Assembly (NCBI GenBank): GCA_047975285.1
Contig: JBKEDG010000061.1
Coordinates: forward strand, 8,808-72,807
Direction of reading: 5' to 3'
Length of the DNA: 64,000 bases
Source: Bacilli bacterium
Lineage (GTDB): Bacteria > Bacillota_I > Bacilli_A > JBKEDG01
Part shown: one piece after another, positions 7,736 through 57,304 of the stretch
Numbering within the stretch: position 1 is the first letter of the stretch
Layout of the letters: every line of letters starts with the position of its first letter
Notes under the pieces: generated by a model
Database searches by the model: none
Told to the model about the DNA's origin: nothing
What the model saw: the letters and a program-made list of their open reading frames with translations, nothing else
Position numbers and translations under genes: made by a program

Positions 7736-9709
7736 CTATTCACAACCCTTTCTATCACACGTTTTTATAATTTCATATGTAATGCTATCTTTATCAAAGC
7801 CAAAATGATTAATCACATCTTTTGCTGGACCACTTAAGCCAAAATTATCAATTGAGAATATAAGTCCATCTAATCCAACATATTGATGATAACTATATGC
7901 AGATGACATCTCAATTGAAACTCTTTTCCTGCAATCTGGCAATAAAATACTATCAATATATTCTTTTGACTGTGAATTAAATATTTCCATGCATAACATA
8001 CTGACAACATTATACTTAATATTAGATTCGTCTAATTTATCACTAACATCAATAGCTAAACTAAGCTCTGAGCCACTTGAAATTATTATTCCATCAGGAT
8101 TTTCATAAGATTTTACCAAATATGCACCCTTTGTAGCATTTCCATAACTAGTATATTCTTCAAGGTTAGGTAAATCTTGCCTAGATAAAATAATTGCAGA
8201 CGGATTTTGCTTATTTAATGCTAATTTATAACTAGCAATAACTTCTTTTAAGTCTGCTGGTCTAAACACATCAATATTTGGTGTACTTCTTAACATAATT
8301 AATTGCTCTACAGGCTCATGAGTTGGTCCATCTTCTCCAACCGCAATACTATCATGTGTAAATGTATAGATAGTAGGTATATTCATTAAAGCAGACATTC
8401 TAATAGCAGGTTTTAAGTAGTCACTGAAAACAAAAAATCCTGATACAATTGCATTAAATCCACTGTGAAGAACTATTCCATTGGCAATTGCTCCCATGGC
8501 ATGCTCTCGCACACCAAATTTTAAATTTCTTCCTTCTCGATTTTCCATAGAAAAATCGCCGTCATTACCAATCACCTTAGTACTTCCGCTAAGATCAGCA
8601 CTACCTGCAAAAACATTTAACATATTATAACTTATTTCTGTAAGAACTTTCCCACCAAGAACTCTTGAAGCAGATTTATCATAGTCTCTATACTTGTTAT
8701 AAATCCCTTCAAAATCACACTCGTAATTATGAGAAATATAATTTAACAAGTTCACATATGTATCTTCATCTTCCCTTTTCATTGTATCTAAATGTTCATT
8801 CCAAACCATGTATTTATTTATACTACGTTCTCTAAATGTATCTTTAAAATGAAAATAAACATCTTCATCAACTTCGAACCTAGCTAGATTATACCCAAGT
8901 TTATTCATTGCTGTAACTGAGTCTTCAACTCCAAAAGGAGCTCCATGAGCAGCACATTGACCTTCATATTTTGATTTATATCCTATTCTTGTTTTAATTT
9001 CAATTATTGTGGGCTTAGAAGTTTCTGATTTCGCTTGGTTTATAGCTTCATCTATACTTTCAACACAATTACCATCATTTACAAGAAGATATTGCCAGTT
9101 CATTGCCTCATATTTAGTACGAGTACACTCTTTATTAACAAGACTCACTTCACTATCTAACTGAATATCATTTGAATCATACAGCACAATTAAGGAACCT
9201 AATTGTTGCACACCAGCAAATGAAATCGCTTCTTGCGTCACTCCCTCTTGCAAGTCACCATCACCACACAAAACATAAGTATGATGATTTATTACACGAT
9301 TTTTTTTTCTTAAAAACTCTTCAGCAACTGCCATCCCAACTCCCATAGCTATTCCTTGACCAAGTGGTCCACTAGTAGCATCAACACCAGGTGTATGTAA
9401 GTACTCTGGATGCCCTGGAGTCTTTGATTTTAGTTGTCTAAAATTCTTCAAATCATCAATAGATAAATTGTAACCCACTAAATGCAACATCGCATAATAA
9501 AGAGCAGAACCATGACCAGCAGCCATAATAAATCTATCTCTATTCACCCAAAACAAATCATCTACATTGGCATGAAGATGCCTTGAATAAAGTGTATACA
9601 TTATTGGAGCAGCACCAAGAACAATTCCAGGATGACCACTCTTTGCTTCATCAATCATTGCTAACCCTAAAGATCGCATTGTATTTATACTTTTATTTTC
9701 TATAGTCAT
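7736..9709 (-). CDS. tkt: transketolase
   Basis: 657 aa; TPP-binding N-terminus (GHPG...GHGS) and GDG...DGxxxEG motif (VLCGDGDLQEGVTQEA); AGGAGG RBS before the ATG at 9709. Confidence 0.93.
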   Translation of the reverse strand: MTIENKSINTMRSLGLAMIDEAKSGHPGIVLGAAPIMYTLYSRHLHANVDDLFWVNRDRFIMAAGHGSALYYAMLHLVGYNLSIDDLKNFRQLKSKTPGHPEYLHTPGVDATSGPLGQGIAMGVGMAVAEEFLRKKNRVINHHTYVLCGDGDLQEGVTQEAISFAGVQQLGSLIVLYDSNDIQLDSEVSLVNKECTRTKYEAMNWQYLLVNDGNCVESIDEAINQAKSETSKPTIIEIKTRIGYKSKYEGQCAAHGAPFGVEDSVTAMNKLGYNLARFEVDEDVYFHFKDTFRERSINKYMVWNEHLDTMKREDEDTYVNLLNYISHNYECDFEGIYNKYRDYDKSASRVLGGKVLTEISYNMLNVFAGSADLSGSTKVIGNDGDFSMENREGRNLKFGVREHAMGAIANGIVLHSGFNAIVSGFFVFSDYLKPAIRMSALMNIPTIYTFTHDSIAVGEDGPTHEPVEQLIMLRSTPNIDVFRPADLKEVIASYKLALNKQNPSAIILSRQDLPNLEEYTSYGNATKGAYLVKSYENPDGIIISSGSELSLAIDVSDKLDESNIKYNVVSMLCMEIFNSQSKEYIDSILLPDCRKRVSIEMSSAYSYHQYVGLDGLIFSIDNFGLSGPAKDVINHFGFDKDSITYEIIKTCDRKGCE

Positions 9710-10027
9710 ATTTACCTCCTACTATAATATTATACCATAATTAAATAATTTTTAGAATACATCTATTTATATAGAGTATACAAATTTTGTTAGGGTAAAT
9801 ATATTAGACTTAAATTTGATAATAATTATCTACATCAATTGAATATCAGGCATTACGCTTGTAAATAGTGTAGCTATTTTTCATCAAAATGTAATTAATA
9901 GTAAATAAATTTACAAGCATTTTAAACATTTTTATCCTTTAATTACATCAAATAAATGATTGGACTGAGACTCTCCCTCAATGAACCTAATCTTGTTTGA
10001 CTTACTTCATTTTTTGTTACAAATATT

Positions 10028-10201
10028 CTAGTCATTAAAATTTAAATTTGATAATTCAATATTTGAGTCATCGCGATAGTCACTTAATGTCATTCCCCTA
10101 CTTTTTAAATCCTGAAAGCTTACTAGCAAAATCCCAATAACAACAATACATATAAACATACTACACACAATTGATTCTTCACTTATTTTTTTAAAACTCA
10201 T
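10028..10201 (-). CDS. small single-TM protein under LexA control (candidate SOS cell-division inhibitor of the SosA/YneA type); start taken at the ATG at 10201
   Basis: 57 aa MSFKKISEESIVCSMFICIVVIGILLVSFQDLKSRGMTLSDYRDDSNIELSNLNFND with GAGGTGA RBS; its -35/-10 promoter has a Cheo box inside the spacer; divergent from lexA as in B. subtilis (yneA) and S. aureus (sosA). The track's longer 67-aa form starts at a TTG. Confidence 0.5.
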   Translation of the reverse strand: MSFKKISEESIVCSMFICIVVIGILLVSFQDLKSRGMTLSDYRDDSNIELSNLNFND

Positions 10202-10219
10202 TTCTATCACCTCAACACC

Positions 10220-10248
10220 ATAATAACACAAACAAATGTTCGTGTAAA
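10220..10248 (-). promoter_or_regulatory. sigma-A-type promoter of the small SOS gene: -35 TTTACA (10243-10248), 17-nt spacer containing LexA box 1, -10 TATTAT (10220-10225)
   Basis: Read on the minus strand: TTTACA-cgaacatttgtttgtgt-TATTAT, followed by GAGGTGA RBS and ATG. Confidence 0.55.
10229..10242. promoter_or_regulatory. LexA operator (Cheo box) 1: caaacaaatgttcg (reverse complement CGAACATTTGTTTG)
   Basis: Matches Firmicute LexA consensus CGAACnnnnGTTCG with one mismatch; an identical 14-mer in opposite orientation lies 28 bp away. Confidence 0.7.
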
Positions 10249-10256
10249 GTATTCTG

Positions 10257-10270
10257 CGAACATTTGTTTG
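10257..10270. promoter_or_regulatory. LexA operator (Cheo box) 2: CGAACATTTGTTTG, overlapping the lexA -35
   Basis: Same 14-mer as box 1, inverted; overlaps TTGATT -35 (10268-10273) of the lexA promoter, with -10 TATAAT at 10291-10296 and AAGGAG RBS. Confidence 0.7.
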
Positions 10271-10316
10271 ATTTTATTAAATTTTTGTAGTATAATAAAT
10301 TTAAGGAGTTGATATA

Positions 10317-10937
10317 ATGAAAGCATTAACAGCAAAACAAAAACCAATCTATGAATTTATCAAAGAATATATAGAAAAAAAATCGTATCCACCTACTGTT
10401 AGAGAAATTGCGAAAGGAGTAAATTTATCTTCCACTTCTACTGTACATACTCACTTAAAAAATTTAGTAGCATTAGGATATATAAAAATGAACTCTTCAA
10501 AGAATAGAACTATTGAGATAGTTGAACAAAATTCTTCAGAAAAACTACCACTAAATAATATAGTTACTGTTCCTATTTTAGGAGTTGTAACAGCAGGGAA
10601 TCCTATTGAAGCAATAGAGAACCCTGACGACTATATTGATTTACCAAGTTATTTAATACCTAATAAATCTGAAGTTTTTACATTAAATGTAAAGGGAGAT
10701 AGTATGATCAATATAGGTGTATTTGATGGAGATATTGCAATTATAGAAAAAACTTCTAATGTACGTAATGGTGATCATGTTGTAGCAATGACTTCAGATT
10801 TTGAGGTTACTCTTAAAACATTTTATAAAGAAAAAAAGCACTTTCGTTTACAACCACAAAACGATTCTCTAGATCCAATTATATTATCTGAAGTTCAAGT
10901 TATTGGAAAATTAATTGGACTTTATAGAAAATACTAA
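10317..10937 (+). CDS. lexA: LexA repressor
   Basis: 206 aa; N-terminal wHTH (PPTVREIAKGVNLSSTSTVHTHLKNLVALGYI), Ala-Gly cleavage site (VTAGNPIEA), S24 peptidase Ser/Lys (GDSMINIG ... LKTFYKE). Confidence 0.95.
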   Translation: MKALTAKQKPIYEFIKEYIEKKSYPPTVREIAKGVNLSSTSTVHTHLKNLVALGYIKMNSSKNRTIEIVEQNSSEKLPLNNIVTVPILGVVTAGNPIEAIENPDDYIDLPSYLIPNKSEVFTLNVKGDSMINIGVFDGDIAIIEKTSNVRNGDHVVAMTSDFEVTLKTFYKEKKHFRLQPQNDSLDPIILSEVQVIGKLIGLYRKY

Positions 10938-10993
10938 TGAAAATATTTAACTAATTATTAATTTATGTTAATATATTAACAGGGGGAATTAAT

Positions 10994-11359
10994 ATGATTA
11001 AAGAATTTAAAGAGTTTATCAATCGCGGTAATGTTGTTGATCTTGCTATTGCATTTATAATGGGAGGTAGTTTTAGCCTTATTATTACTTCATTAGTAAA
11101 TGATATTGTAATGCCAATTGTTTCATTAATATTTGGAGGGTTTGATTTTTCAACTCTTATTATTAAAATTAATGGAGCAACTATAAACATTGGTCTGTTT
11201 ATACAAAATATTGTAAATTTTATAATAATTGCATTTATCATGTTTCTACTTGTCAGACAAATTAATTCAAGAAAGAAGTCTGAAGTTAGTGATGATGTTT
11301 TGGAAATTGATCCACAGGTAAAATTACTTGAAGAAATAAAAGACTTGTTAAAAAAATAA
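10994..11359 (+). CDS. mscL: large-conductance mechanosensitive channel
   Basis: 121 aa; MIKEFKEFINRGNVVDLAIAFIMGGSFSLIITSLVNDIVMP is the canonical MscL N-terminus and TM1. Confidence 0.9.
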   Translation: MIKEFKEFINRGNVVDLAIAFIMGGSFSLIITSLVNDIVMPIVSLIFGGFDFSTLIIKINGATINIGLFIQNIVNFIIIAFIMFLLVRQINSRKKSEVSDDVLEIDPQVKLLEEIKDLLKK

Positions 11360-11453: not shown

Positions 11454-13235
11454 TTATTCAACAGTAACAGATTTAGCTAAGTTCCTTGGCATATCAATAT
11501 CTTTTTCAAGATATAGAGATGTATAATAAGAAATTAATTGCATATATACAACAGAAACTAATGGCGCTAATTCGTCACAAACTTCTGGGAATACTAAGTC
11601 ATCTCCATCTTTAGCATACTTACCATTAACAATAGTAATTACATTTGCTCCTCTTGATTCAACTTCCATTATATTACTTCTAGTATTTAAAGCTAAATCA
11701 CCTTGAGTAATCAAAAATATTGTAGGTGTACCTTCCTCAATCAACGCTATTGTACCATGCTTCAATTCTCCTGAACTCATTCCTTCAGTATGAATATATG
11801 AAATTTCTTTTAATTTAAGCGCACCTTCTAAAGACGTTTTGTAATCAACTCCTCTACCAAGTACAAAACAATGTTCGCAAGTTAGCAAAGACTTTTTTAC
11901 AATTTGTGAAACTTGTTCCTTATTCTCTAAAACACTTTCTATTACGGAAGCCACTTTGCTAAGTTGCGAATATAAATCAAACTCTCTATTACTTAAACTA
12001 TATCCTAATATTGCAAGTGTTGTAACTTGTGCAATAAACGCTTTTGTTGAAGCAACGGCAATCTCTCTTCCAGCATACAGAAATAAAGTTTTTTCTGTTT
12101 CTCTTGATAAAGTTGAACCTTCAACATTTGTAATAGTAACTGTTTTTAAGCCTTGTTCCTTTACTTTAACAAGCGCAGCGCGTAAATCTGCAGTTTCACC
12201 ACTTTGTGAAATAAAGATACACAAATCATCCTTATCAAGCAGTGGCATATCATATGTGAACTCACTTGCAATATGAACTAATACACTTTTTTTAATAAAT
12301 TTTTCTAACAATGATTGGTTAACTAACCCTGAATAATAGGATGTTCCTGCTGCAATTATTCTAATAGCTTTAGCGTTTTTAACCATTTCAATGATTTCTT
12401 GATCGATATTAACTTTACCATTAGGTAAATATTTAGCAATTAACCCTCTTATTACTGATGACTGATCATGGATTTCCTTCAACATATAATGATCATAAAT
12501 TCCCTTTTCACTTTCACTTGCATCAATAGAAATACTGAATTTTTCACGTTTAACTTCAGTACCATTTTTGTCATATAAAACAACATCATCTTTTGTGATA
12601 ACACCATATTCTTTATCATTAATTTCTAAAACATTAGATGTTTTAGCGTACATAGCAAGCGCATCAGAACCAAGCATATTAAATCCATCTCCAATTCCCA
12701 CCAAAATGGGACTTTTATTCTTTGCAACATATAATTTATTATCATAGTCTTTATTGACTACTGCTAAAGCATAACTTCCATCAACTACATCAATAAGTTT
12801 TTCTAAAGAGTCCTCCATGCTTAATCCTGATTCAATAAATTTTTCCATAAGATTTGATAAAACTTCTGTGTCAGTTTGACTATAAAATTTACAATCTTGT
12901 AAATACTTATCTTTAATTTCATTATAGTTTTCAATAACTCCATTATGCACTAATACAATCTGTTTATTTTGACCATGATGTGGATGTGAATTACATTCAT
13001 TTGGAACTCCATGAGTAGCCCATCTTGTATGACCTATAACAAGATTCGATTTTTGATCATTTATTTTTTTCTCTAAGTTCAATATCTTACCAACGCTTTT
13101 AATTATGTTAACATCACCATTTTTAAAATAAGCAATTCCTGCAGAATCATAACCTCTGTACTCCAACTTTTTTAAGCCATTTATTACAATTTCTGTTGCA
13201 TTATCATTTCCAATATATCCAACAATTCCACACAT
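11454..13235 (-). CDS. glmS: glutamine--fructose-6-phosphate aminotransferase
   Basis: 593 aa; N-terminal MCGIVGYIG (Ntn Cys1) and two SIS domains; ATG lies 1 nt after the glmM stop, with the RBS inside glmM. Confidence 0.95.
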   Translation of the reverse strand: MCGIVGYIGNDNATEIVINGLKKLEYRGYDSAGIAYFKNGDVNIIKSVGKILNLEKKINDQKSNLVIGHTRWATHGVPNECNSHPHHGQNKQIVLVHNGVIENYNEIKDKYLQDCKFYSQTDTEVLSNLMEKFIESGLSMEDSLEKLIDVVDGSYALAVVNKDYDNKLYVAKNKSPILVGIGDGFNMLGSDALAMYAKTSNVLEINDKEYGVITKDDVVLYDKNGTEVKREKFSISIDASESEKGIYDHYMLKEIHDQSSVIRGLIAKYLPNGKVNIDQEIIEMVKNAKAIRIIAAGTSYYSGLVNQSLLEKFIKKSVLVHIASEFTYDMPLLDKDDLCIFISQSGETADLRAALVKVKEQGLKTVTITNVEGSTLSRETEKTLFLYAGREIAVASTKAFIAQVTTLAILGYSLSNREFDLYSQLSKVASVIESVLENKEQVSQIVKKSLLTCEHCFVLGRGVDYKTSLEGALKLKEISYIHTEGMSSGELKHGTIALIEEGTPTIFLITQGDLALNTRSNIMEVESRGANVITIVNGKYAKDGDDLVFPEVCDELAPLVSVVYMQLISYYTSLYLEKDIDMPRNLAKSVTVE

Positions 13236-13236
13236 T

Positions 13237-14574
13237 TTAATTCACCTTCTCGTTTAATTCTCTAATCGTCTCTGAAATGGAATTAGAATACTCAATACAA
13301 TTTTTTCCATCTTCACACTCAACTAAAACTCTTATCATTTGTTCAGTTCCACTTGCACGAACAAGAACTCTTCCAGAATCTTCTAAAATATTTTCAACTC
13401 TTCTAATCTCTTCTAACACAGATCTATGATTAAGAGAATAGTCTTTATCTATAACTTTAACATTGACTAACACACTTGGATATTTATTTATCGATTTTAT
13501 TAAATTTTGCAAAGAATTCCCAGATTTTTTAAAATAGTCAAGTACTTGTAAAGCAACTAAAATTCCATCTCCACTTGGGGCATAATCTTTCAAAATAATA
13601 TGTCCACTCGTTTCTCCACCAAGATTTAAATTGTATTTGTCCAATGCATGGCTGACATATTTATCTCCCACATCAGTAATTTTAACATCAACATTTAATT
13701 CATTTTTCAAATTATTTATAACACCTAAGTTTGACATGGTAGTTAACGCAATAGCATTGTTAACTAATTTATTCTCATCTAAATACTTTTTAACAAGGAT
13801 ATAAATTATATAATCTCCATCAATATCATTCCCATCTCCATCAACAAAAATTATGCGATCAGCATCTCCATCAAAAGCAATACCAAAATGTGCTTTTTCT
13901 TCAACAACAACTTCCGAAAGATTCTTTGTATTTGTCGATCCACATCGGTCATTAATATTTAGACCGTTGGGTTCATTATTAATGTAAATAACATCTTTCA
14001 TAAAGGTATTAAATACAATTGGAGCCACGTAACTAGATGCACCATTAGCACAATCAATAACTACCTTAAAGTCAAAACTATCTACACTAACAGTATCTAC
14101 AAGCATTTCAATATAATCGCTTTTTGCAACTTCAAGGTCATACACTCTTCCAATTCTACCAGCGATCTTACGACTTATTTCTATTTCTCCATCAATAAAT
14201 TTTTCAATTTTTTCTTCTAACTCGCTACTAATTTTTTTCCCATCACTATCAACTACCTTAATTCCATTATCTATTACAGGGTTATGACTTGCAGAAATTA
14301 CTATTCCATAATCTGCGTTATGTTTCTTTACAATATAATTTACTGCCGGAGTAGGTAAAACACCAACTCTATAAACATCTCCACCCGATGCAGTAATCCC
14401 TGCTACAACAGCAGATTCCAACATATCTCCAGATATTCTAGAATCTTTACCAATAACTACCTTCTTTTTCAAATCAGAAGTTTCTCCAATTACTCTTCCT
14501 AATTCAAAAGCTATTTCAGGAGTTAGCATTTCATTAGCAACTCCCCTAATTCCATCTGTTCCAAAATATTTCAT
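13237..14574 (-). CDS. glmM: phosphoglucosamine mutase
   Basis: 445 aa; MKYFGTDGIRGVAN N-terminus and active-site SASHNP (phosphoserine loop). Confidence 0.95.
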   Translation of the reverse strand: MKYFGTDGIRGVANEMLTPEIAFELGRVIGETSDLKKKVVIGKDSRISGDMLESAVVAGITASGGDVYRVGVLPTPAVNYIVKKHNADYGIVISASHNPVIDNGIKVVDSDGKKISSELEEKIEKFIDGEIEISRKIAGRIGRVYDLEVAKSDYIEMLVDTVSVDSFDFKVVIDCANGASSYVAPIVFNTFMKDVIYINNEPNGLNINDRCGSTNTKNLSEVVVEEKAHFGIAFDGDADRIIFVDGDGNDIDGDYIIYILVKKYLDENKLVNNAIALTTMSNLGVINNLKNELNVDVKITDVGDKYVSHALDKYNLNLGGETSGHIILKDYAPSGDGILVALQVLDYFKKSGNSLQNLIKSINKYPSVLVNVKVIDKDYSLNHRSVLEEIRRVENILEDSGRVLVRASGTEQMIRVLVECEDGKNCIEYSNSISETIRELNEKVN

Positions 14575-14589
14575 ACTTATATTCCACCT

Positions 14590-15951
14590 CTACGACTTTG
14601 ATAATTCAACTATCACTTTCTCTTTACTCAGGCTATATTTAACCCTACTGTCTAACCCCGAGACTTTTACTTTTACTGAGTGTTTACCAGAAGTTAAATC
14701 AATCAAATCAACTTCTAACATAATATCTTCAGCATCAATTTCCCTTAATACAGAGTCAGCTCCGCTCAATTCAACCGATAAAAGCAACTCACCATCAGGC
14801 GACTGTACCGAGTATCCATTTGGAGCATTGATAGACTGTACAGGAACATTTTTTATTGTTTTCTTGCTAGTCTTATCATAAGTTAATTTAACAGTTACCT
14901 TTGTCTCAGAAAGTGAAATGACATCGTCTGGTTTAGGGATAGTTAATGTAATTGAATTAGTAGACTTAACATCCCCTAAATCTACGTCAATTTTCAATTC
15001 ATTTATTGAGTTTAAACTGTCTTTATCGCCATAGATATACACTTCCTCAGTGCTAAGTTCGTATGAACTTACACTCTGCCCATCAGGCAAATCACCCATA
15101 AAATTGACAACAATAGGCACTGACTTCCCATAATCAGTAGCAACTACAGTCGCTTTTTTCTCTTTAACACTTACATCTACATTTACAGTTTCTCCAGTTA
15201 CATTATAAGCACGATAAGTAATTGCATCTTTGCCCAATTCAACAGTACCAGGTGATGAAATAGATTCTACATTTACAAGTGCCTTTAGACTGGCCACGCT
15301 CTCAACTTTTTCTCTACTTCCACTAATTTGTGCTCCGCCTGATAATGAAATACTCTCAACAGTAAGATTGTTACCCATTTTATCAACGTTCACTGCTTCA
15401 ACGTCTATTTTTAAATCATCTCTAACAACCTTTTTATGGGCTACAATTTTAAAACTTGAAGGCGAAGAACTAATAACGATATTATCTCCAACATTTTCTA
15501 CAGAAACTTGCATATCTTTTGATTCTCCATCTTTAACAGCAGATGTATCAATAAAGAATTTATTTTCCTTATTATTAATCATCTTAATTACTTCATTTCT
15601 AGGTCCTTTGACAATTAAGTCAGCATAAATAATATCACTACTAAGTTGTTTATTAGTTTGATCAAAAACTTCAATAACCTTCGCCTTATCATTATTTACT
15701 ATTTCAATCTTTACATTTTCTAAAGTTCGAGTTTCTAAATTTTTTAATTCTAATTGACTTGGTAAGTCAATTACATATATATATAAAAGACTTGCTGAAA
15801 TAATTGAAATAATAACTAGCATAATATTCTTTGAAAATAACAAATCTATCATCCCACCAATTGATCTAAAAAACCTTGTAAAAAAATTAAATTTAATTAT
15901 TTTTTTTGATTTGTTTATAGGATCTTTTGACTTCTTACTCATCATTATCAC
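14590..15951 (-). CDS. cdaR: CdaA regulatory protein CdaR (YbbR-like repeats)
   Basis: 453 aa; N-terminal TM anchor then repeated YbbR-like beta-rich modules; sits between cdaA and glmM as in the conserved cdaA-cdaR-glmM operon. Confidence 0.8.
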   Translation of the reverse strand: MIMMSKKSKDPINKSKKIIKFNFFTRFFRSIGGMIDLLFSKNIMLVIISIISASLLYIYVIDLPSQLELKNLETRTLENVKIEIVNNDKAKVIEVFDQTNKQLSSDIIYADLIVKGPRNEVIKMINNKENKFFIDTSAVKDGESKDMQVSVENVGDNIVISSSPSSFKIVAHKKVVRDDLKIDVEAVNVDKMGNNLTVESISLSGGAQISGSREKVESVASLKALVNVESISSPGTVELGKDAITYRAYNVTGETVNVDVSVKEKKATVVATDYGKSVPIVVNFMGDLPDGQSVSSYELSTEEVYIYGDKDSLNSINELKIDVDLGDVKSTNSITLTIPKPDDVISLSETKVTVKLTYDKTSKKTIKNVPVQSINAPNGYSVQSPDGELLLSVELSGADSVLREIDAEDIMLEVDLIDLTSGKHSVKVKVSGLDSRVKYSLSKEKVIVELSKS

Positions 15952-16882
15952 TTCCCCCTACAATCTTATCAATATCATCGAAATCGTCGTTTGGAAAACT
16001 CGAGATTATCATATCATTATCCTTTTGATTTAAATCATATTCACTCTCATAATTTTCTTCATGAATACTAATTAGTTTTTCTTCTTCTACATACTCATTG
16101 GACACTTCACCATCCAAATATAATTCTCGTAATTTCTCTTCCATTTCATTTAATGTTAAATCATAGAATATAACTCCTAAGTGTGTTACTGAAATAGTAC
16201 CAGTTTCTTCACTTACGACTAAAGTAATACAATCACTTATTTCACTTATTCCAATACTTGCACGATGTCTTGTACCAAAACTTTCTCCAACAAGCGGATT
16301 ATGCGTTATAGGATAATATGCCTTAGCGCAGGCAATTTTATTACCTTGAATAATAACAGCCCCATCGTGTAAAGGTGAATCAGTAATAAACATGGAAATC
16401 AAAATCTCTGAAGTTACATCAGAAAACAAGTGATGACCTTTCGAAATAAACTCATATAAACTTTCATTTTGTTCTAAAGTTATAATTGCACCGATTTTCT
16501 TTGAAGAAAGTAAATTAACTGTCTGTTTTAATTCCTTAACAATTTTATCACGATCTGTCAAACTAAGGTCTCGATGTTTACCAAAGAACAATTTGTTTCT
16601 TCCAAGTTGTTCTAGTGCTTGACGTATTTCTGGATGGAAAATAATTATTACAATTATAAATCCATTTGCTAAAATATAACTAAGCAAATATTCGATTGTC
16701 GTAAGCTGTAAAACTTTAGCTACTTTCTGAAGTAATAAAACAACAATTATTCCTTTAAACAGCAACATCATTCTAGCATTGTTTTTTATCAATCTCAGTA
16801 ATAAATATATACCAATTGCAACAATTGACAAATCTAAAATTATTCTAATTATATCCCAAACTACAATTAAACTATCTGACAT
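15935..16882 (-). CDS. cdaA: diadenylate cyclase CdaA (c-di-AMP synthase) with an acidic C-terminal tail
   Basis: 315 aa; three N-terminal TM helices, DAC domain motifs DGAVII and RHRASIGISE; C-terminal ~60 aa are unusually acidic (EENYESEYDL...DDFDDID...DNDE). Confidence 0.9.
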   Translation of the reverse strand: MSDSLIVVWDIIRIILDLSIVAIGIYLLLRLIKNNARMMLLFKGIIVVLLLQKVAKVLQLTTIEYLLSYILANGFIIVIIIFHPEIRQALEQLGRNKLFFGKHRDLSLTDRDKIVKELKQTVNLLSSKKIGAIITLEQNESLYEFISKGHHLFSDVTSEILISMFITDSPLHDGAVIIQGNKIACAKAYYPITHNPLVGESFGTRHRASIGISEISDCITLVVSEETGTISVTHLGVIFYDLTLNEMEEKLRELYLDGEVSNEYVEEEKLISIHEENYESEYDLNQKDNDMIISSFPNDDFDDIDKIVGGSDNDE

Positions 16883-17724: not shown

Positions 17725-19140
17725 TTAATTAGACATAATATCAAGTAAAGCTTTTGACTTTAAAAAACTACTACTATCATCTTTTATCTTCTTTGTATAT
17801 AAATTATAAACTTGCTTTACATTATCACCTAAAGTATTATCACTTAAGCTTATTAACTTACAAGCAATATTCAATTCATTTTCCATGATGTTAAATAAAT
17901 TTCTCACAATTTTTGTTGTTTTTGTTGCCACATACTGAGTATTATTACCACGATCCTCTATATCACCTGCCACTGCAATAAAATCAAGCGACCCTGGGTT
18001 AGATAAAAATCTAATTTCATTATACAATTTTGAATTCATCATTTCTACTGATTCTAAAACATTAGCTTCTGCTTCTAATTCAATACTGCGATAACAAGAA
18101 AGTTTTGCTACATGATTCAATAATTGTCCCAATTCTTCTAATGCAAGTACCCAATTTATTGTTTCAAAATTACAACATGAAATTATGCGTCTCTCCTCTA
18201 ATAACAAACAAGGATTATCATCGCTAGAGTTTAATTGTATTGTCAATAATTCTTCCAAATTATTTAGAGCATCAATTGCAGCAGCATTAACACTTAACCC
18301 ATTCTTAAAAGCAAACGGAAGATTGGTTTTTGAACTACTCGACAACAACTCCCTATTAGCTAGATGTTTCTTAACATCTGTAGCATAATTGTAAGTACCA
18401 TAATTACCCTGATTAGTTAAAAGCATATCAATTTCCAAATTTGAACAGTTATATCCATCAAAAGAGGTTGCTAAAAGTAAAGAAGAAATTTTAAGTAAAT
18501 CTTTCGCTTCTTTTAACATTAAAGCAGCTAGTCCAGCCCCAAAAGCATTAGAACTAATTATAGCAAGTCCATCTTTAGGTCCAAGATCAACTATTTTCAA
18601 TCCTGATTTATAAATTGCATCTTTTGCAAGCATAACTTCACCATTATAATATACCTCACCTCTTCCAAGCATCGCAAGCCCAATGTGAGGAATATTAGTA
18701 ATATCACCAACCCCAACACTACCACTTCTAGGAATCAAAGGCGAAATTCCTTTGTTAATAAAGTCTACATATGCATCGATGACATCTAAACTTGCTCCAG
18801 TACATCCTGATAAGAATCCTCCCAATCTACACAACATTACCGCTCTAACTTCTATATCATTTAAAACTTCACCTGCACAAACACAGTGTGATAAAACCAT
18901 TTGTGTATTATATTCTTGAAAATATTCTTCAAAAATATCTTGATCTTTATTCCAACCAACCCCAGTATTAAATCCATATATTTGCACACCTTCATCAACT
19001 AAATCAAAAACAAGTTGTCTTGCTTCAACAAGTTTTTGGCGGGTATTTGAATCAATTTCTACTTTAACACTATGATCATGTGCAATTCTTGAAACCAATT
19101 CAATAGTAAGATTTTTCCCATCTAAAGTTACTATACTCAT
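17725..19140 (-). CDS. aromatic-amino-acid-lyase-fold (HAL/PAL family) protein lacking the MIO-forming Ala-Ser-Gly triad; candidate trimethylamine-lyase (ergothionase-like)
   Basis: 471 aa; HAL-like N-terminus (MSIVTLDGKNLTIELVSRI..., IYGFNTGVG); at the MIO position reads RSGSVG-VGDITNIPHIGLAMLGRGE versus HAL [23 protein letters not shown] (Ala deleted, Ser->Val); AGGAGGTG RBS; 1-nt gap after upstream paralogue. Confidence 0.7.
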   Translation of the reverse strand: MSIVTLDGKNLTIELVSRIAHDHSVKVEIDSNTRQKLVEARQLVFDLVDEGVQIYGFNTGVGWNKDQDIFEEYFQEYNTQMVLSHCVCAGEVLNDIEVRAVMLCRLGGFLSGCTGASLDVIDAYVDFINKGISPLIPRSGSVGVGDITNIPHIGLAMLGRGEVYYNGEVMLAKDAIYKSGLKIVDLGPKDGLAIISSNAFGAGLAALMLKEAKDLLKISSLLLATSFDGYNCSNLEIDMLLTNQGNYGTYNYATDVKKHLANRELLSSSSKTNLPFAFKNGLSVNAAAIDALNNLEELLTIQLNSSDDNPCLLLEERRIISCCNFETINWVLALEELGQLLNHVAKLSCYRSIELEAEANVLESVEMMNSKLYNEIRFLSNPGSLDFIAVAGDIEDRGNNTQYVATKTTKIVRNLFNIMENELNIACKLISLSDNTLGDNVKQVYNLYTKKIKDDSSSFLKSKALLDIMSN

Positions 19141-19141
19141 C

Positions 19142-20548
19142 TTAACACACCTCCTTTATTAATATCTTTGATTTCACTAAACTATACATTTTTTCTATAT
19201 CACTTGTTAAATTACGATCAGCATCATAAAATGGTAGTACATCTCTAACTTTATCATAAACTATACTTGTTCTTTCTCCTAATTTAATATTGTCTCTTAA
19301 ATCAATTGCCTGACAAGAACACATTAGCTCAACTCCAAATACATACGCTAATTTTTCTAAAATTTCATTAACTTTCATAGTAACTTGTCTCGAATTGCAA
19401 TCATAGTCATCATATTTTGATTTATACGAGAAAAAATCAGAATTTGAAGGGTTAGCCAGGTGACGAATTTCAGCATCAAGTCCTGAAACACAGTTTGGTA
19501 CAATTGCAAATGCGTGTACTTCATTATCTGGTGAAAGATATCTATTTAAACCTGTAAATCTAGTATCAGACAATTTTATGGTTCTAAAAACACTTGATTT
19601 AGACATATGAGAAAAAATTTGACCTAGCATTTCAACATTTATTGTCCAAGCTATTGAATCATTAGTAGTACTATAATAACCATCCTTATCAATAATTATA
19701 TGAGGAACATAATTTAATCCCATACATACTTTTTTTTCTAAATTATTTAGAATATGTCTTGCTGATCCATGAATATGCGTAATGTCACGATAACTTAGTG
19801 GATCTTGCAAAGCGATTTTTTCGCTAGTGTAAATATAACTACCTTTTAAAATATTATTCATGTTTTTTGCAACCACTAAATTTTCTTCAAATGGACGATG
19901 TTTATAAATTGATTCATCAAGTGGTGTAACATTACCATTTAACCCTTCTAAAGATATAGCTGATATTAAATCTATTGTCTCTAAAAAATCTTTTGAGTTT
20001 TTTACTAAAATACTTACAAGTGCAATATCAAAAACACTTGAATTTTGAATACTGTAAGTATCAATAGAATCAAGTTCCAATATTTGCAGCCTTGATTTTC
20101 TAAAAGCCTCTTTTGCGTCAACAATATCATTTTCATAATTAACTTTACCTACCCCATTCATCGCAAGACACAATGCACATAAATTGTCATGATTACTTTT
20201 ATTCTCGTCTAATACTGGAGTTATTTTATAATTAATCATATTCTCTAAAATTTCAACAGTTTTTCGCGAAATACCTACATTACTATTTATAAGTGAATTA
20301 AGTAATACGACCATAACACTTCTTACATCTAGAGTAGAAATTTTTTTGGAACTCCAATCAAGTTCCACATAACTAGCACCATAATCTTTCATAACTTTGC
20401 TTACATCAAACTTTTTTAGAAATTCTTTTCTTTTTTTCTCTAATCTAATGAATACATTTTCATCAACCTCTAATATAGCTTGATTATTAGCAATTAAATT
20501 CAAATCGTCTACATTTAACATTGTACCATCTAAAATAATTTTCTTCAT
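19142..20548 (-). CDS. second, more divergent HAL/PAL-fold paralogue, also without the Ala-Ser-Gly triad
   Basis: 468 aa; HAL-like N-terminus (MKKIILDGTMLNVDDLNLIANNQAILEV), QDPLSYR and ANPSNSD motifs retained; MIO region reads ENKSNHDNLCALCLAMNGVGKV (no ASG); AGGAGG RBS. Confidence 0.6.
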   Translation of the reverse strand: MKKIILDGTMLNVDDLNLIANNQAILEVDENVFIRLEKKRKEFLKKFDVSKVMKDYGASYVELDWSSKKISTLDVRSVMVVLLNSLINSNVGISRKTVEILENMINYKITPVLDENKSNHDNLCALCLAMNGVGKVNYENDIVDAKEAFRKSRLQILELDSIDTYSIQNSSVFDIALVSILVKNSKDFLETIDLISAISLEGLNGNVTPLDESIYKHRPFEENLVVAKNMNNILKGSYIYTSEKIALQDPLSYRDITHIHGSARHILNNLEKKVCMGLNYVPHIIIDKDGYYSTTNDSIAWTINVEMLGQIFSHMSKSSVFRTIKLSDTRFTGLNRYLSPDNEVHAFAIVPNCVSGLDAEIRHLANPSNSDFFSYKSKYDDYDCNSRQVTMKVNEILEKLAYVFGVELMCSCQAIDLRDNIKLGERTSIVYDKVRDVLPFYDADRNLTSDIEKMYSLVKSKILIKEVC

Positions 20549-47945: not shown

Positions 47946-48869
47946 TTAATTCCTACTTATATAGTTATATTCATCTAAACTAATTTGCAACTTATATATT
48001 TCATTACTTTTTTCACCAACATACCTAAAATGTCCCCGTTCTTCATACTTAAAAATTGCAGAATATTCTTTCTTGAAACGCAAAATAAAACCATATTTAC
48101 TACCTATTTTTTCTATTGTACTATCATGCTCTTCTTTATAATCTAAATCAATTGCTAGTCCTGTTGCATGTTCATCGTACAAATCACCTTTATCTAAAGT
48201 CTTAACAATTGTGTATTTTATATTAAAACTATCAAGTTCATCAAAAAATTTTTCTAGGTCATTGCACATTTTATTATTGTATACGCTGAATCCATAACAA
48301 TAAGTCCAATTTCTGTTAGCACTATTTAACTTATTATATTTATTAACAATACTAAGTTCATTAACTTCATAAATAGTATTATAGTTATCATATGCACTTA
48401 AATCATAATCTAAATTTACATTTAAAATAGCATCTTCTCCTTTATAATCTAAATACCTTTCTGTCCTTGATTCTATAAAATACTCATCGCCAAATAATTT
48501 CCTAAATTTTCTATTATTGGATTTATTTATTAATTTGTAATCAAATTCTATTTCAACCATCTTTATTATGTCATCTATACTATAATATTTAGTTAAATGA
48601 TTAATTTTATCTAAATTCACATCACAATTTCTAATTTTTTTATAGATGCCAATGTTATTTACATCAAAATCGTCTTTTAATATATTACAATCAATATATT
48701 CATAATATCGATCTAATTCTATCTCTAACTCTTGAATCTTTTGATATGAATTATTATTGTATTTATATAAATTTTCTTCGATAACAAAGTCATTTGCTGG
48801 ATTATAATTCATATAAATCACAAAAATTATAAATATTGAAATAATAAAAAAAGGAATATACGTTTTCAT
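47946..48869 (-). CDS. membrane-anchored M15B (VanY-like) D-Ala-D-Ala carboxypeptidase family protein
   Basis: 307 aa; N-terminal TM; catalytic motifs EHATGLAIDL (SxHxxGxAxD-like) and EERGHFRY (EPWHxRYVG-like) in the C-terminal ~110 aa. Confidence 0.6.
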   Translation of the reverse strand: MKTYIPFFIISIFIIFVIYMNYNPANDFVIEENLYKYNNNSYQKIQELEIELDRYYEYIDCNILKDDFDVNNIGIYKKIRNCDVNLDKINHLTKYYSIDDIIKMVEIEFDYKLINKSNNRKFRKLFGDEYFIESRTERYLDYKGEDAILNVNLDYDLSAYDNYNTIYEVNELSIVNKYNKLNSANRNWTYCYGFSVYNNKMCNDLEKFFDELDSFNIKYTIVKTLDKGDLYDEHATGLAIDLDYKEEHDSTIEKIGSKYGFILRFKKEYSAIFKYEERGHFRYVGEKSNEIYKLQISLDEYNYISRN

Positions 48870-52819: not shown

Positions 52820-53461
52820 TTATAAATAACTATTTACCTTTTCTTGATACACATTTAAAAATTCTGTTGACTCTTTAGAAATCTCTAAACATTTTGATTT
52901 ATAATAACTTACTAAATCTACATCACTTAACCCCGGCAAATTAATTTTTACATTTAAAATAGCCCCTTCAATTCCTGCCGATAAAAGCAATGCAGCAACA
53001 CCAACATCTGTAATAGCATTTTTATTTCCAAATTCAATAATGCTTGTCAATAGTTTAAGTGCTTTCAAACTTTCTGTAGCAATCTCATAAGGAACCTTAA
53101 TTATTTCTTTTGTAGCTTCTTCCATTTGTTCAAGACGAAATTGCTTTTCCTCTTCACTATCTTTTGGTAATTTTAATGCTTTCATGAAAATTCCAAATGA
53201 TCTTGTATCTTCATCAACTAAAAACTCAAGACTATCTTGGTGCGCTTTTAACTTAGAAAATGACTCACTAAATAAATCCTTATCTTTTTCATCAAGAGCT
53301 TCATACTTCTTCTTACCAAAAGTTAAATGCCCCACCATTCTAGCAAGTGCACAACCAACAGCTGCAGCAACACTACTAACACTACCACCACCTGGAGCTG
53401 GTGAATCAGAATCAACTTCCTTCACAAATTCTTTTACTGTCAAATCAATTAAATTACCCAC
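52820..53461 (-). CDS. formiminotetrahydrofolate cyclodeaminase / methenyl-THF cyclohydrolase-family protein (FTCD C-domain); start re-assigned to a GTG at 53461
   Basis: SPAPGGGSVSSVAAAVGCAL motif about 20 residues from the N-terminus, as in cyclodeaminases; GTG overlaps the hutI stop (GTGGGTAA) and has GGAGGA 7 nt upstream; the track's longer ORF (to 53563, TTG start) would overlap hutI by about 110 nt. Confidence 0.7.
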   Translation of the reverse strand: MGNLIDLTVKEFVKEVDSDSPAPGGGSVSSVAAAVGCALARMVGHLTFGKKKYEALDEKDKDLFSESFSKLKAHQDSLEFLVDEDTRSFGIFMKALKLPKDSEEEKQFRLEQMEEATKEIIKVPYEIATESLKALKLLTSIIEFGNKNAITDVGVAALLLSAGIEGAILNVKINLPGLSDVDLVSYYKSKCLEISKESTEFLNVYQEKVNSYL

Positions 53462-54743
53462 AACTACATCCTCCACAACCACTTGATTTTTCTTTATATA
53501 TTTCGCCGTTAGCAACAACAAGTTTACCATCTTTAAAGACGTGTTTAACATGGCTTTTACCAAAATTATAGAATAAATAATTTAAATTATCAGTATTATA
53601 AACTACAAAGTCAGCATTTTTACCTATTTCAATACTACCTACTTCTTTCTCTAATCCAACTGCCTTTGCAGCATTTATTGTCGTAGCACTAAGAACTTCC
53701 TCAGGTAGCATTCTAACTTTACTCGCTGCCAAATACATTGCAAAAGGTAAACTTTCACTAGGACAACTACCTGGATTATAGTCAGTTGAAACTGCAACAC
53801 AACAGCCAGCATCAATCATATCACGACCTTTTGCAAAATCTTTGTTTAAATTAAATGATGTTGCAACAAGTAAATTAGCTACGATATCACTATTTGCCAT
53901 AGCATCTATCCCTTCTTTACCAGTAGCCATTAAATGATCCGCACTAACACAGCCTAATTCACAAGCTAGTTTTGCTCCACCTAAATCGACAATTTCATCA
54001 GCATGAATTTTCGCTTTAAAACCTTTTGCAACAGCATGTGATAAAATATCTCTCGATTCTTTTGGATTAAATACTGCATCTTCACAGAAAATATCAACAA
54101 ATCTAGCTAAGTCTTTATCAGCCAAATAATCAATCATTTCTTTAACAAGTTTGATATATCCCGCCTTGTTTTCCTTATATTCAGGTGGAACAGCATGAGC
54201 ACCCATAAATGTTGAAACCACTGATATAGGATGTAACTCATTTAACCTTTTGGCCACCTCAAGTTGTTTAAGTTCTGTTTCAAGATTTAAACCATATCCA
54301 CTTTTTGCTTCAACTGTAGTAACACCATATTTTAGCATTGTGTTTAAGCTATCATATGCTTTTTGAAGTAATGAATCAGCACTTGCATTTTTTGTCGCCT
54401 CAACAGTACTTAGTATCCCACCACCAGCTTTTAAAATATCAAGGTAGGGAACACCTTCTAATTTCATCTTTAGTTCATGCTCACGACTTCCACCATGTAC
54501 TAAGTGAGTGTGGGCATCGACCAAACCAGGTGTAACTAGAAATTTATCAGCATCTAAAATAAGCGTATTTTCATCAACCAAGCTTTCATCATATTCACCA
54601 GTTCCTACATGGGAAAATTTCCCCTTTGTTACAGCAAACCAACCATTATCAATTGCTCCAACTTCCTTCATTTCACTACCACGTCTTGGACCTCCATCCA
54701 TTGTAATCAATGTTGAAGTATTATATACTATTAAATCAGCCAT
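53454..54743 (-). CDS. hutI: imidazolonepropionase
   Basis: 429 aa amidohydrolase; metal-binding HTHLV near the N-terminus, KIHADE and D-loop motifs; C-terminal CGGCSCG tail coincides with the downstream gene's SD. Confidence 0.9.
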   Translation of the reverse strand: MADLIVYNTSTLITMDGGPRRGSEMKEVGAIDNGWFAVTKGKFSHVGTGEYDESLVDENTLILDADKFLVTPGLVDAHTHLVHGGSREHELKMKLEGVPYLDILKAGGGILSTVEATKNASADSLLQKAYDSLNTMLKYGVTTVEAKSGYGLNLETELKQLEVAKRLNELHPISVVSTFMGAHAVPPEYKENKAGYIKLVKEMIDYLADKDLARFVDIFCEDAVFNPKESRDILSHAVAKGFKAKIHADEIVDLGGAKLACELGCVSADHLMATGKEGIDAMANSDIVANLLVATSFNLNKDFAKGRDMIDAGCCVAVSTDYNPGSCPSESLPFAMYLAASKVRMLPEEVLSATTINAAKAVGLEKEVGSIEIGKNADFVVYNTDNLNYLFYNFGKSHVKHVFKDGKLVVANGEIYKEKSSGCGGCSCG

Positions 54744-55636
54744 TATAATAAACTATTCTCCAAAACCATATCCATATTAAACCCTTCAACTTTCAAGTAG
54801 AAACTTGCACAATCAGTAAGTGCCTCCATTGGAAGTGAGCCAATAATCTCGCTACCAATTACATTAACACCATACCTAGCAGCTTCAAATTTAACTGTTT
54901 CAAAAACTCTATATATACTTGTTTTTCTATAATCAAGGATATTCATAGAAACTTGTACAATTCCACGCTCTGTTAGTTCCATTGGTCCAGCTTGTACAAA
55001 ACGAAACCCACCACTACTAAATCTAATTGCCTTAGAAATCGATGCTGCAATATCTACATTATCTGTATCTAAATTAATATTAAAAGCAATAAGTGGAACA
55101 CGAGCACCCACAGCAGTACATCCAGCGGTCGGATGTTTTTTTGCGTTCCCATAGTCAGGAGCCCAATTTTCTTCTTTAATTTTATCATCAAATCCTTCAA
55201 ATTCACCTTTTCTTATTGTTGGTAATTTAATACGATCTGGTTTATTAGCCGCTTCTGCATACATATAAATAGGTAAATCATACTTGCTTGCCAATTCTTT
55301 TCCAAGTTCATTTGCAACTTCAACACACTCTTCCATTGTAATATTTTTAAGTGGAATAAATGGAATAACATCTGTTGCCCCCATTCTCTTATGTTCTCCT
55401 GAATGGTTATTTAAGTCGATTAGTTCTGTAGTTTTTCCAACTAAGTCAATTAACGCACTCTTAATTGCATCAATATCTCCAAGTAAAGTTACAACTGTTC
55501 TGTTGTGATCTGGATCTGGCAAATAACTTACTAGTTTAAAACCTTTACGGTCCTTTAATACACTTACAATTTTTTCAACTTTATCTAAATCCCTACCTTC
55601 TGAAAAGTTAGGTACACATTGAACTATTCTATTCAT
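54743..55636 (-). CDS. ftcD: glutamate formimidoyltransferase (formiminotransferase domain only)
   Basis: 297 aa; MNRIVQCVPNFSEGRD N-terminus is the hallmark of the FTCD transferase domain. Confidence 0.85.
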   Translation of the reverse strand: MNRIVQCVPNFSEGRDLDKVEKIVSVLKDRKGFKLVSYLPDPDHNRTVVTLLGDIDAIKSALIDLVGKTTELIDLNNHSGEHKRMGATDVIPFIPLKNITMEECVEVANELGKELASKYDLPIYMYAEAANKPDRIKLPTIRKGEFEGFDDKIKEENWAPDYGNAKKHPTAGCTAVGARVPLIAFNINLDTDNVDIAASISKAIRFSSGGFRFVQAGPMELTERGIVQVSMNILDYRKTSIYRVFETVKFEAARYGVNVIGSEIIGSLPMEALTDCASFYLKVEGFNMDMVLENSLL

Positions 55637-55645
55637 AATCTCTCC

Positions 55646-57304
55646 TTAAAATAATCCGTCGATTTTCCCATCGTCGGAAATTGTCATTCTATTTGCTGCA
55701 GGTACTTTTGGTAACCCCGGCATTCTCATTACACTACCAAGGATTGCAACAACAAATCCTGCTCCTGTATTTACAATAAAATCTCTAACAGTTACATCAA
55801 AACCACTTGGTGCTCCGATTTTTTTAGCATCGTCACTAAATGAGTATTGTGTCTTTGCAACACAGATTGGAAAATTACCAAACCCACCTTTTTCAATTTT
55901 CTCTAATGATTCTTTTGCCTCTTCTGTCAAAATAACGTTTTTTGCACCATATATTTCAGTAGCAATTTTATTCATTTTTGCTTCTAGGCTCATATCTAAA
56001 TCATATAAATATTTAAAATCGTTTTTCTGTTCACAAATTTCAACAACTGCATTTGCTAAATCAACTGCTCCTTCTCCACCTTTTGCATGAACTTCAGTAA
56101 GTATTGCTTTTATTCCCAAATCTGCACACATTTTGGTAAGTAAATCAAATTCTGCCTTAGTGTCAGTTGGAAATGCATTAATTGCAACAACTGGAGTAAG
56201 TCCAAATTTCTTTACATTTATAATATGTTTTTCTAAGTTGCAAAAACCAGTTTTAACAGCTTCAAGATTTTCGCTTGCAAGGTCAGTTTTTTCAACACCA
56301 CCATGCATTTTTAATGCTCTAATCGTAGCCACTAAAACTACAGCAGAAGGTGTTAAATTACCGTATCTACACTTAATGTCTATAAACTTCTCAGCACCCA
56401 AATCTGCTCCAAACCCTGCCTCAGTAACAGTATAATCACTTAACTTAAGAGCTGTTTCTGTTGCAATAATTGAATTACATCCATGAGCAATATTTGCAAA
56501 TGGTCCACCATGAATAACAACTGGAGTGTGTTCAAGAGTTTGTACTAGATTAGGCTTCATAGCATCCTTTAAAAGCAAACAAACTGCGTGTGTTGCTTGG
56601 ATATCATTTACAGTTATTTTTTCACCTTTTGTTGAATAAGCAATGATAATTCTTCCAACTCGTTTTTTTAAGTCTCCGATATCTGTAGCAAGACATAATA
56701 TTGCCATTATCTCACTTGCAACAGTAATATCAAATCCATCTTTTCTAGTCATTTGATCATATTTACCATCTATTCCAACAACAACTCTTCTTAACGCACG
56801 ATCATTTAAATCTACACAGCGCTTCCAAGTAATATTTTCAATATCAACATCTAAATTGTTACCTTGAAAAATATGATTATCTAACATAGTAGCAATTAAA
56901 TTATTAGCAGAAGTAATAGCATGAAAATCACCCGTAAAGTGAAGATTTATATCTTCCATAGGAACAACTTGTGCTTCTCCACCACCTGCGGCTCCACCTT
57001 TAATACCAAAGATTGGGCCAAGACTAGGTTCTCTAAGAGCACTAATTGCACTCTTACCAATCTTATTAAGTCCCATTGACAATCCAATATTAACGGTTGT
57101 TTTTCCTTCACCTGCAGGTGTAGGACTAATAGCTGTAACTAAAATCAATTTACCTTTTTTATCTGATTTTATTTTAGAAATATCAATCTTTGCTTTATAT
57201 TTACCATATAATTCTAAACTATCTTCATTTAACCCTAATTTTTCTCCAACTTTTAAAATATGTTGCATCTCACAACTTTGTGCTATTTCAATATCTGATC
57301 TCAT
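55646..57304 (-). CDS. fhs: formate--tetrahydrofolate ligase
   Basis: 552 aa; SDIEIAQ..., P-loop [10 protein letters not shown], and conserved FTHS core. Confidence 0.92.

Follow-up and report, generated by a model that had tools for sequence, protein, structure and literature searches.

In this DNA, lexA and a gene for a predicted 57-aa membrane protein lie back to back, and each of the two divergent predicted promoters contains one copy of the same 14-mer. It is very likely that the two copies are LexA operators placed inside the two promoters; this is the regulatory part of our reading. The full reading, in which the genes form a LexA-repressed divergent pair and the small one encodes an SOS division effector of the SosA/YneA type, is a proposal to which we give an even chance. 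What is new is the protein sequence, which belongs to no known family; the arrangement of the regulatory elements and the functional class are both well established.

In the following, the window is the whole stretch of DNA that was analysed, 64 kb in length, and the slot is the position divergent from lexA. For comparison, 160 loci around LexA relatives were collected from genomes and metagenomes, and the 153 with enough upstream sequence were counted. The closest relative, L001, shares 73% identity in LexA with the window, compared to 53–60% for all others. A metagenome scan for closer relatives of this lexA found none above 59% identity, leaving L001 as the sole close relative.

Two predicted LexA operators within divergent promoters

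The features of the lexA region are as follows.

lexA, 10317-10937, plus strand: 206 aa; TIGR00498 equivalog, 205.6 bits against a cutoff of 110.95; Pfam LexA_DNA_bind and Peptidase_S24
lexA promoter (predicted), 10268-10296, plus strand: -35 TTGATT at 10268-10273, 17-nt spacer, -10 TATAAT at 10291-10296; 10 of 12 matches; kept in L001
Cheo box 2, proximal LexA operator (predicted), 10257-10270, plus strand: CGAACATTTGTTTG; its last three bases overlap the first 3 nt of the lexA -35
Cheo box 1, distal LexA operator (predicted), 10229-10242, minus strand: CGAACATTTGTTTG on the minus strand, CAAACAAATGTTCG when read on the plus strand; takes up 14 nt of the 17-nt spacer in the small-gene promoter
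Small-gene promoter (predicted), 10248-10220, minus strand: -35 TTTACA at 10248-10243, box 1, TGT at 10228-10226, -10 TATTAT at 10225-10220; 10 of 12 matches, with a TG extended -10
Small-gene Shine-Dalgarno sequence GAGGTGA, 10213-10207, minus strand: separated from the ATG by 5 nt; identical in L001
Small gene, 10201-10028, minus strand: 57 aa and stop; ATG at 10201, stop TAG at 10030-10028; MSFKKISEE, then the transmembrane (TM) segment SIVCSMFICIVVIGILLVSF, then QDLKSRGMTLSDYRDDSNIELSNLNFND

The adjoining gene had been named lexA in the preliminary description of this DNA, and the TIGR00498 match (205.6 bits) agrees with that name. The translation contains the Ala-Gly cleavage site (VTAG), the GDSM serine and the LKTF lysine; with these motifs present, the protein should self-cleave like other LexA proteins.

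The 14-mer CGAACATTTGTTTG had been described as occurring twice in opposite orientation, 28 bp apart, and both copies are read at 10229-10242 and 10257-10270. The start-to-start distance is 28 bp, with 14 nt separating the arms of this inverted pair, which are 100% complementary. The LexA consensus for Bacillus subtilis and Staphylococcus aureus is CGAACN4GTTCG (PMC9578287), and GAACnnnnGTTT is a clostridial variant of the operator (PMC4234289). Each box agrees with the consensus at 9 of 10 specified positions and is an exact match to the clostridial variant, as expected from the early assignment of both to the Gram-positive LexA operator. The pattern CGAACN4GTTYG has two matches in the 64-kb window, which are the two boxes, and none elsewhere; in 100 dinucleotide shuffles of the window, the mean number of matches was 0.02 and none of the shuffles reached two. 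The looser core GAACN4GTTY is not enriched window-wide, with 5 sites found against 2.9 expected. Using an 8-of-10 criterion, no further SOS boxes of like quality were found in the window. The sites at 11864 and 17989, each matching 8 of 10 positions, were rejected as SOS boxes, being no more than shuffles give.

A consensus scan of 9700-11100 returned the lexA promoter and the small-gene promoter as the top two promoter-like sites. This bears out the original placement of box 2 on the lexA -35 and of box 1 in the spacer of a TTTACA/TATTAT promoter. The 17-nt spacer of the latter consists of box 1 plus TGT. In both the window and L001, the two boxes have GTTTG, not GTTCG, on the gene-facing half. 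This departure from the consensus may reflect promoter function, because that half supplies the TTG of the lexA -35 (GTTTGATT) and precedes the TG of the small-gene extended -10 (GTTTGTGTTATTAT).

The distance between the -10 and the ATG is 18 nt for the small gene (10202-10219) and 20 nt for lexA (10297-10316). Therefore, the two leaders would be about 12–14 nt in length, with the Shine-Dalgarno sequence at the extreme 5′ end. For the small gene, the distance is also 18 nt in L001; it is mostly 22–30 nt in the other relatives (range 21–52). The small-gene promoter of L001 reads TTGAAA, box, TGT, TAATAT. Between the window and L001, the boxes are identical at 14 of 14 positions and both the -35, -10 and Shine-Dalgarno elements are retained, whereas 5 of the 14 nt between the boxes differ. 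Compared to the small protein, the intergenic DNA is much better conserved.

A transcript of the twin operators (10229-10270) would fold into a 15-bp hairpin of -18.3 kcal/mol (z = -3.5), and a T-rich run comes next on the plus strand. The inverted repeat might thus be a bidirectional terminator or another RNA element, beside which the small ORF had arisen by chance. We rejected this explanation, which is highly improbable. Each arm taken singly is nearly palindromic and fits the LexA consensus; on neither side does a gene run towards the repeat, and transcription of both genes is predicted to start outside it. The small ORF is moreover conserved and under purifying selection, as described below. 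The relatives have two unlike boxes at spacings of 27 to 39 bp, so complementarity within a hairpin is not what is conserved; what the relatives keep is the match of each box to the LexA operator, not inter-box complementarity or spacing. The hairpin potential probably follows from having two identical operators in inverted orientation.

Sequence constraint on the small gene

The tiny gene had been characterized by the GAGGTGA motif, an ATG at 10201 and a 57-aa product, and all of these were recovered, together with the stop codon at 10030-10028. A TTG at 10231 would give a 67-aa ORF, but it precedes the -10 and was therefore rejected as the start. GenBank contains an identical 57-aa sequence, hypothetical protein ACK5NF_04370 (MAG: Bacilli bacterium), and the same ORF was called on a Logan contig from SRR30067258; two independent gene callers thus agree. 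The gene had been introduced as unannotated or novel. With the GenBank entry, the first term no longer applies; the second does, in that the sequence is new and without known family.

L001 has a homologue of 58 aa, with 31% identity and an E-value of 6e-8. The distances to lexA are alike in the two genomes (117 versus 116 nt). Directly after the TM segment, the two proteins have in common the motif FQDL..G.T..DY, which in the window protein comprises F29-Q-D-L, G36, T38 and D41-Y42. Among the small ORFs of related loci, 104 pairs of equal length have a median dN/dS of 0.17, and all of them are below 1. These values indicate that the small ORFs are translated and constrained; such purifying selection on the peptide also indicates that the protein itself matters. 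Judged by its sequence, with a homologue in L001, constrained positional counterparts and the agreement of two gene callers, the 57-aa ORF is a real gene.

Architecture and membrane topology of the 57-aa protein

The 57-aa protein starts with nine polar residues, continues with a hydrophobic stretch of 20 and ends in a tail of 28 residues, among them three Lys/Arg and six Asp/Glu. The hydropathy peak is 3.26 over residues 11–27, corresponding to a single membrane-spanning segment, as in the lexA-adjacent SOS division inhibitors. The AF2 single-sequence model contains one helix, residues 8–34, which extends past the membrane core; the mean pLDDT is 96 for residues 11–20 and 92 for residues 21–30. 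The tail was modelled with low confidence, with a tentative helix at residues 39–49.

The net charge of the window protein is 0 on both flanks of the TM segment. With the flank charges balanced in this way, its topology is unreadable from its own sequence. In L001, the N flank is +4 and the C flank is -1. For 75 unique slot proteins, the mean net charges of the N and C flanks are +1.25 and -0.35, respectively, and the N flank is higher than the C flank in 56 of the 75. The charges in L001 and the family-wide bias favour an N-in, C-out orientation, which has been shown experimentally for SosA (PMC6851548). The 28-residue acidic tail is probably extracellular. Position and topology were both first described as mirroring SosA and YneA; the divergent, lexA-adjacent position does so, whereas the topology is suggested by L001 and the family bias and not by the protein's own flank charges of 0/0.

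Homology searches

In Pfam (E ≤ 0.1), LysM included, there was no match for the 57-aa protein or for 38 slot proteins, and NCBIfam, PHROG and PDB sequence searches of the same proteins gave nothing meaningful. A word-indexed search of 5.8 billion proteins with the 57-aa protein retrieved itself alone. Apart from the protein itself, a phmmer search of 1.84 billion cluster representatives gave one 1335-aa match without an aligned stretch, which was rejected as spurious by BLASTP. The database searches (5.8 billion word-indexed proteins, phmmer against 1.84 billion, and NCBIfam for YneA) thus found no homology to SosA or YneA. The lack of LysM and of visible similarity to either inhibitor, noticed earlier by eye, persists at the scale of these databases. 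As neither YneA, SosA nor any known family is homologous to it, the function was assigned solely from the position of the gene, its predicted regulation and the build of the protein.

With a profile of the 38 slot proteins, 46 more short hypothetical proteins were retrieved, all of them unnamed and without a Pfam domain. An hhalign comparison of the window/L001 pair with the other 36 slot proteins detected no homology (probability 6%), and a single family for all slot proteins was rejected on this result. The slot occupants could therefore differ in function. The window protein thus corresponds to the other slot proteins in position and architecture, but kinship with them is not demonstrable, and it is in effect an orphan, known from two genomes.

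The slot opposite lexA in related genomes

The MAGs of the relatives are labelled Bacilli, Tenericutes, Mycoplasmatota and Erysipelotrichaceae; two named relatives are placed in 'Mycoplasmatota incertae sedis' and 'Bacilli incertae sedis'. A box was defined by at least 8 of 10 positions within 200 nt upstream of lexA. At least one box was found in 103 of the 153 related loci, compared to 0.65% of other 200-nt segments in the same loci. Two boxes, spaced by 27–39 bp, are present in 42 loci, and a box recurs at -55 to -70 from the lexA ATG.

Small ORFs were defined as divergent, 38–65 aa in size, starting with ATG, preceded by a Shine-Dalgarno sequence and encoding an N-terminal hydrophobic helix or single TM segment. 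A search of related genomes for such an ORF, as suggested at the outset, found one divergent from lexA at 86 of 153 loci; together with the L001 homologue, this argues against a random ORF. Boxes are present in 82 of the 86 loci with the small ORF and in 21 of the 67 without it. The odds ratio is 45 and the p-value is 4e-18, which overstates independence because the loci are phylogenetically related.

Alignment on the distal box showed a fixed design, TTGACA, CGAACnnnnGTTCG and TGnTAnnAT, followed typically by 18–30 nt, a Shine-Dalgarno sequence and the ATG. At 66 of the 86 small-ORF loci, the -35 (at least 5 of 6 positions) abuts the box and the -10 begins three bases past it; TG is present in 55 loci. 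In the literature searched, we found no description of a clade-wide 'SOS slot' with a rigid operator-in-spacer promoter. It is possible, at slightly less than even confidence, that uncultured Bacilli of gut and environmental origin, with small genomes of low GC content (MAGs labelled Bacilli, Tenericutes or Mycoplasmatota), have a fixed SOS slot with an invariant operator-in-spacer promoter, in which bitopic occupants of 43–58 aa have been replaced or have diverged beyond recognition, the window type occurring in two genomes only.

Two other arrangements of the slot were observed. About 100–320 nt upstream of lexA in L023 and L026, an SOS-type promoter (TTGACA plus Cheo box) first drives a 60–73 aa HTH-like ORF (..EYYTIKDIQLLTGYSKRKVYLLIKKLN..), and the small TM ORF comes second, 321 nt from lexA. 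The HTH-like ORF looks like an extra regulator inserted into the slot. In L046, L051, L058 and L075, the slot holds a protein of 226–227 aa with an N-terminal TM helix or signal (MKKNFRVLYLGLMVIVLL...TYAYLTASTSS...) and no small peptide; these four loci have the proximal box only.

Transketolase and the remainder of the window

Downstream of the small gene lies one conserved neighbour.

tkt (transketolase), 7736-9709, minus strand: on the small-gene strand, 318 nt downstream of the small gene

No terminator was found in between, and transcription of the small gene possibly reads through into tkt. The intervening gap (9710-10027) is 318 nt in length and 22% in GC content; in 23 relatives, it measures 41–120 nt. 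The gap contains no repeats and no Rfam family. Compared with L001, only the 45 nt adjoining tkt are conserved; otherwise, there is one weak match of 34 nt to L142 (85% identity, E = 3.5e-4).

This neighbourhood bears on another explanation of the small gene. The protein may have a different SOS-regulated role in the membrane, e.g. envelope or protease modulation, or the gene may be mainly the first cistron of a damage-inducible transcript that continues into tkt and boosts pentose-phosphate supply for repair. A transcript of this kind would fit the lack of a detected terminator and the position of tkt, which comes next on the small-gene strand both in the window and, after short gaps, in 23 relatives. 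It would also fit four relatives in which tkt itself is directly divergent from lexA; three of these (L005, L073 and L104) have one box upstream of lexA each, and L123 has none. However, in most loci with the small ORF, tkt does not come next, the ORF standing between lexA and tkt in only 23 of 86; the gap in the window is long and AT-rich (318 nt, 22% GC), and purifying selection acts on the peptide. We assign to this explanation a minor but appreciable likelihood, and retain the division effector as the preferred reading.

On the other side, mscL (10994-11359) begins 56 nt after lexA, and no terminator was detected between them. Nevertheless, mscL was rejected as part of the unit, being absent beside lexA in 160 of 160 related loci; its adjacency to lexA is therefore specific to this genome. 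Farther along, cdaA, cdaR (YbbR), glmM and glmS form one minus-strand string (11454-16882) that converges on the lexA side, and glmS starts 1 nt after glmM. In the 64-kb window, Rfam detected no glmS ribozyme, and no RNA family reached its gathering score.

The rest of the window, which is 30% in GC content, is ordinary chromosome with dnaE, pnp, FAS II, PFOR, mutL, ftsK, rnj, hut genes, gltX and gap. FtsK is present; no FtsW or PBP gene was found within the 64 kb. Beside ftsK, a 307-aa ORF (47946-48869) has a sub-threshold match to VanY, a D-Ala-D-Ala carboxypeptidase (E = 1.6e-4, 21.9 bits against a cutoff of 25). This VanY-like match, glmS and glmM are the only hint of peptidoglycan synthesis in the window. 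Two tandem aromatic-amino-acid-lyase (HutH-like) paralogues at 17725-20548, together with the urocanase, amidohydrolase, formiminotransferase, cyclodeaminase and formate-THF ligase at 52820-59326, constitute a split histidine-utilisation set. The ORFs 52820-53563 and 53454-54743 overlap by 110 nt, and owing to this overlap, the TTG start of the former was probably called too far upstream.

Proposed mechanism

The geometry suggests a repressed state in which LexA dimers would sit on the two identical operators. Box 2, located at the lexA -35, would mediate lexA autoregulation, and box 1 would fill the spacer of the divergent promoter. With the operators in these places, both promoters would be occluded. 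Upon DNA damage, LexA self-cleavage is stimulated by RecA, which frees the LexA-repressed promoters. Since the 14-mer is identical at both operators, derepression of the small gene should coincide with that of lexA. Its mRNA, with a leader of ~12 nt and a strong Shine-Dalgarno sequence, would then be translated into the 57-aa bitopic membrane protein. The product may be the SOS checkpoint effector of the organism, delaying division as SosA and YneA do. Docking might take place through the TM helix and the juxtamembrane FQDL..G.T..DY motif, on the late divisome or on a septal peptidoglycan synthase, i.e. a target of FtsW type.

Alternatively, the protein could be an SOS-induced membrane toxin of the TisB or DinQ kind, which would depolarise the membrane and promote dormancy after damage and would not act on the divisome. 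A small single-TM peptide under predicted LexA control, with no recognisable interaction domain, is consistent with a toxin, and so is its fast sequence turnover, 31% identity compared to 73% for LexA, as in many toxins. Type I toxin mRNAs have long structured leaders and are paired with antisense RNA. The small gene has 18 nt from -10 to ATG and a strong, unpaired Shine-Dalgarno sequence, and Rfam finds no RNA family in the window. Moreover, a 28-aa polar tail with a conserved juxtamembrane motif suggests a specific partner, and the lexA-adjacent slot is the slot of division inhibitors in Gram-positives (PMC6851548). A toxin is unlikely in our estimation, and the SosA/YneA-like division effector remains the reading that we prefer.

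Significance

If the slot proteins are division inhibitors, they would be the smallest SOS checkpoint effectors of Gram-positives, consisting of a TM helix and a tail of ~20–28 residues with no peptidoglycan-binding domain. They would add very small, LysM-free cases to the membrane-bound SOS division inhibitors, and would amount to a natural library of peptides that target FtsW or the divisome. Short natural peptides acting on FtsW would help to dissect or inhibit SEDS polymerases. The division-effector reading would also open a first way into the DNA-damage checkpoint of a large clade of uncultured Bacilli with reduced genomes, and the conserved design of TTGACA, Cheo box and TGnTAnnAT is a clean marker for such genes in metagenomes.

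Comparison with known systems

In Bacillus, Listeria, Staphylococcus, Mycobacterium and Corynebacterium, SOS division inhibitors are single-TM proteins of little mutual homology that are encoded divergently from lexA (PMC6851548). Like the members of this class, the window gene is located next to lexA, is divergent from it and encodes a protein with a single membrane span.

SosA of S. aureus is 77 aa in size and LexA-repressed (PMC6851548). Like the window gene, sosA is divergent from lexA, and it is under the Cheo-box control that is predicted for the window gene. The two proteins are also alike in having a short N-terminus, one TM segment at about residues 10–30, a C-terminal tail without LysM and conserved residues just after the TM segment. 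SosA requires its extracellular segment next to the membrane, and it is this part that the window and L001 proteins have conserved. Different from SosA, the window protein is 20 residues shorter and shows no similarity to it by exhaustive search; it comes from a MAG of uncultured low-GC Bacilli, and its topology and function are predictions from sequence.

The TM helix of YneA binds TM7 of FtsW, and SosA, ChiZ and SidA have been modelled likewise; YneA activity requires LysM (PMC13396833). YneA of B. subtilis and Listeria (~105 aa, TM plus LysM) resembles the window protein in its slot opposite lexA, in its control by a LexA box, which is predicted for the window gene, and in its N-terminal TM segment. 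Compared to YneA, the window protein contains no LysM or other peptidoglycan-binding domain, has no homology to it and possesses a 28-aa tail, and the yneB and ynzC partners are not seen. That it lacks the domain on which YneA activity depends counts against the division-effector reading. In B. subtilis, tkt is presumably located a few genes beyond yneA.

DivS of Corynebacterium glutamicum and SidA of Caulobacter (29 aa) are likewise SOS-induced small membrane division inhibitors without LysM, and SidA acts on FtsW. However, they belong to other phyla, have no sequence relation to the window protein and are controlled by other operators; the LexA operator of Caulobacter is GTTCN7GTTC (PMC9578287).

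The type I toxin–antitoxin system TisB/IstR-1 of Escherichia coli involves a LexA-repressed, small hydrophobic membrane peptide, as predicted for the window gene. TisB is almost all TM helix and is expressed with a long structured leader and an antisense RNA, whereas the window gene combines a ~12-nt leader and a strong Shine-Dalgarno sequence with a 28-aa polar tail.
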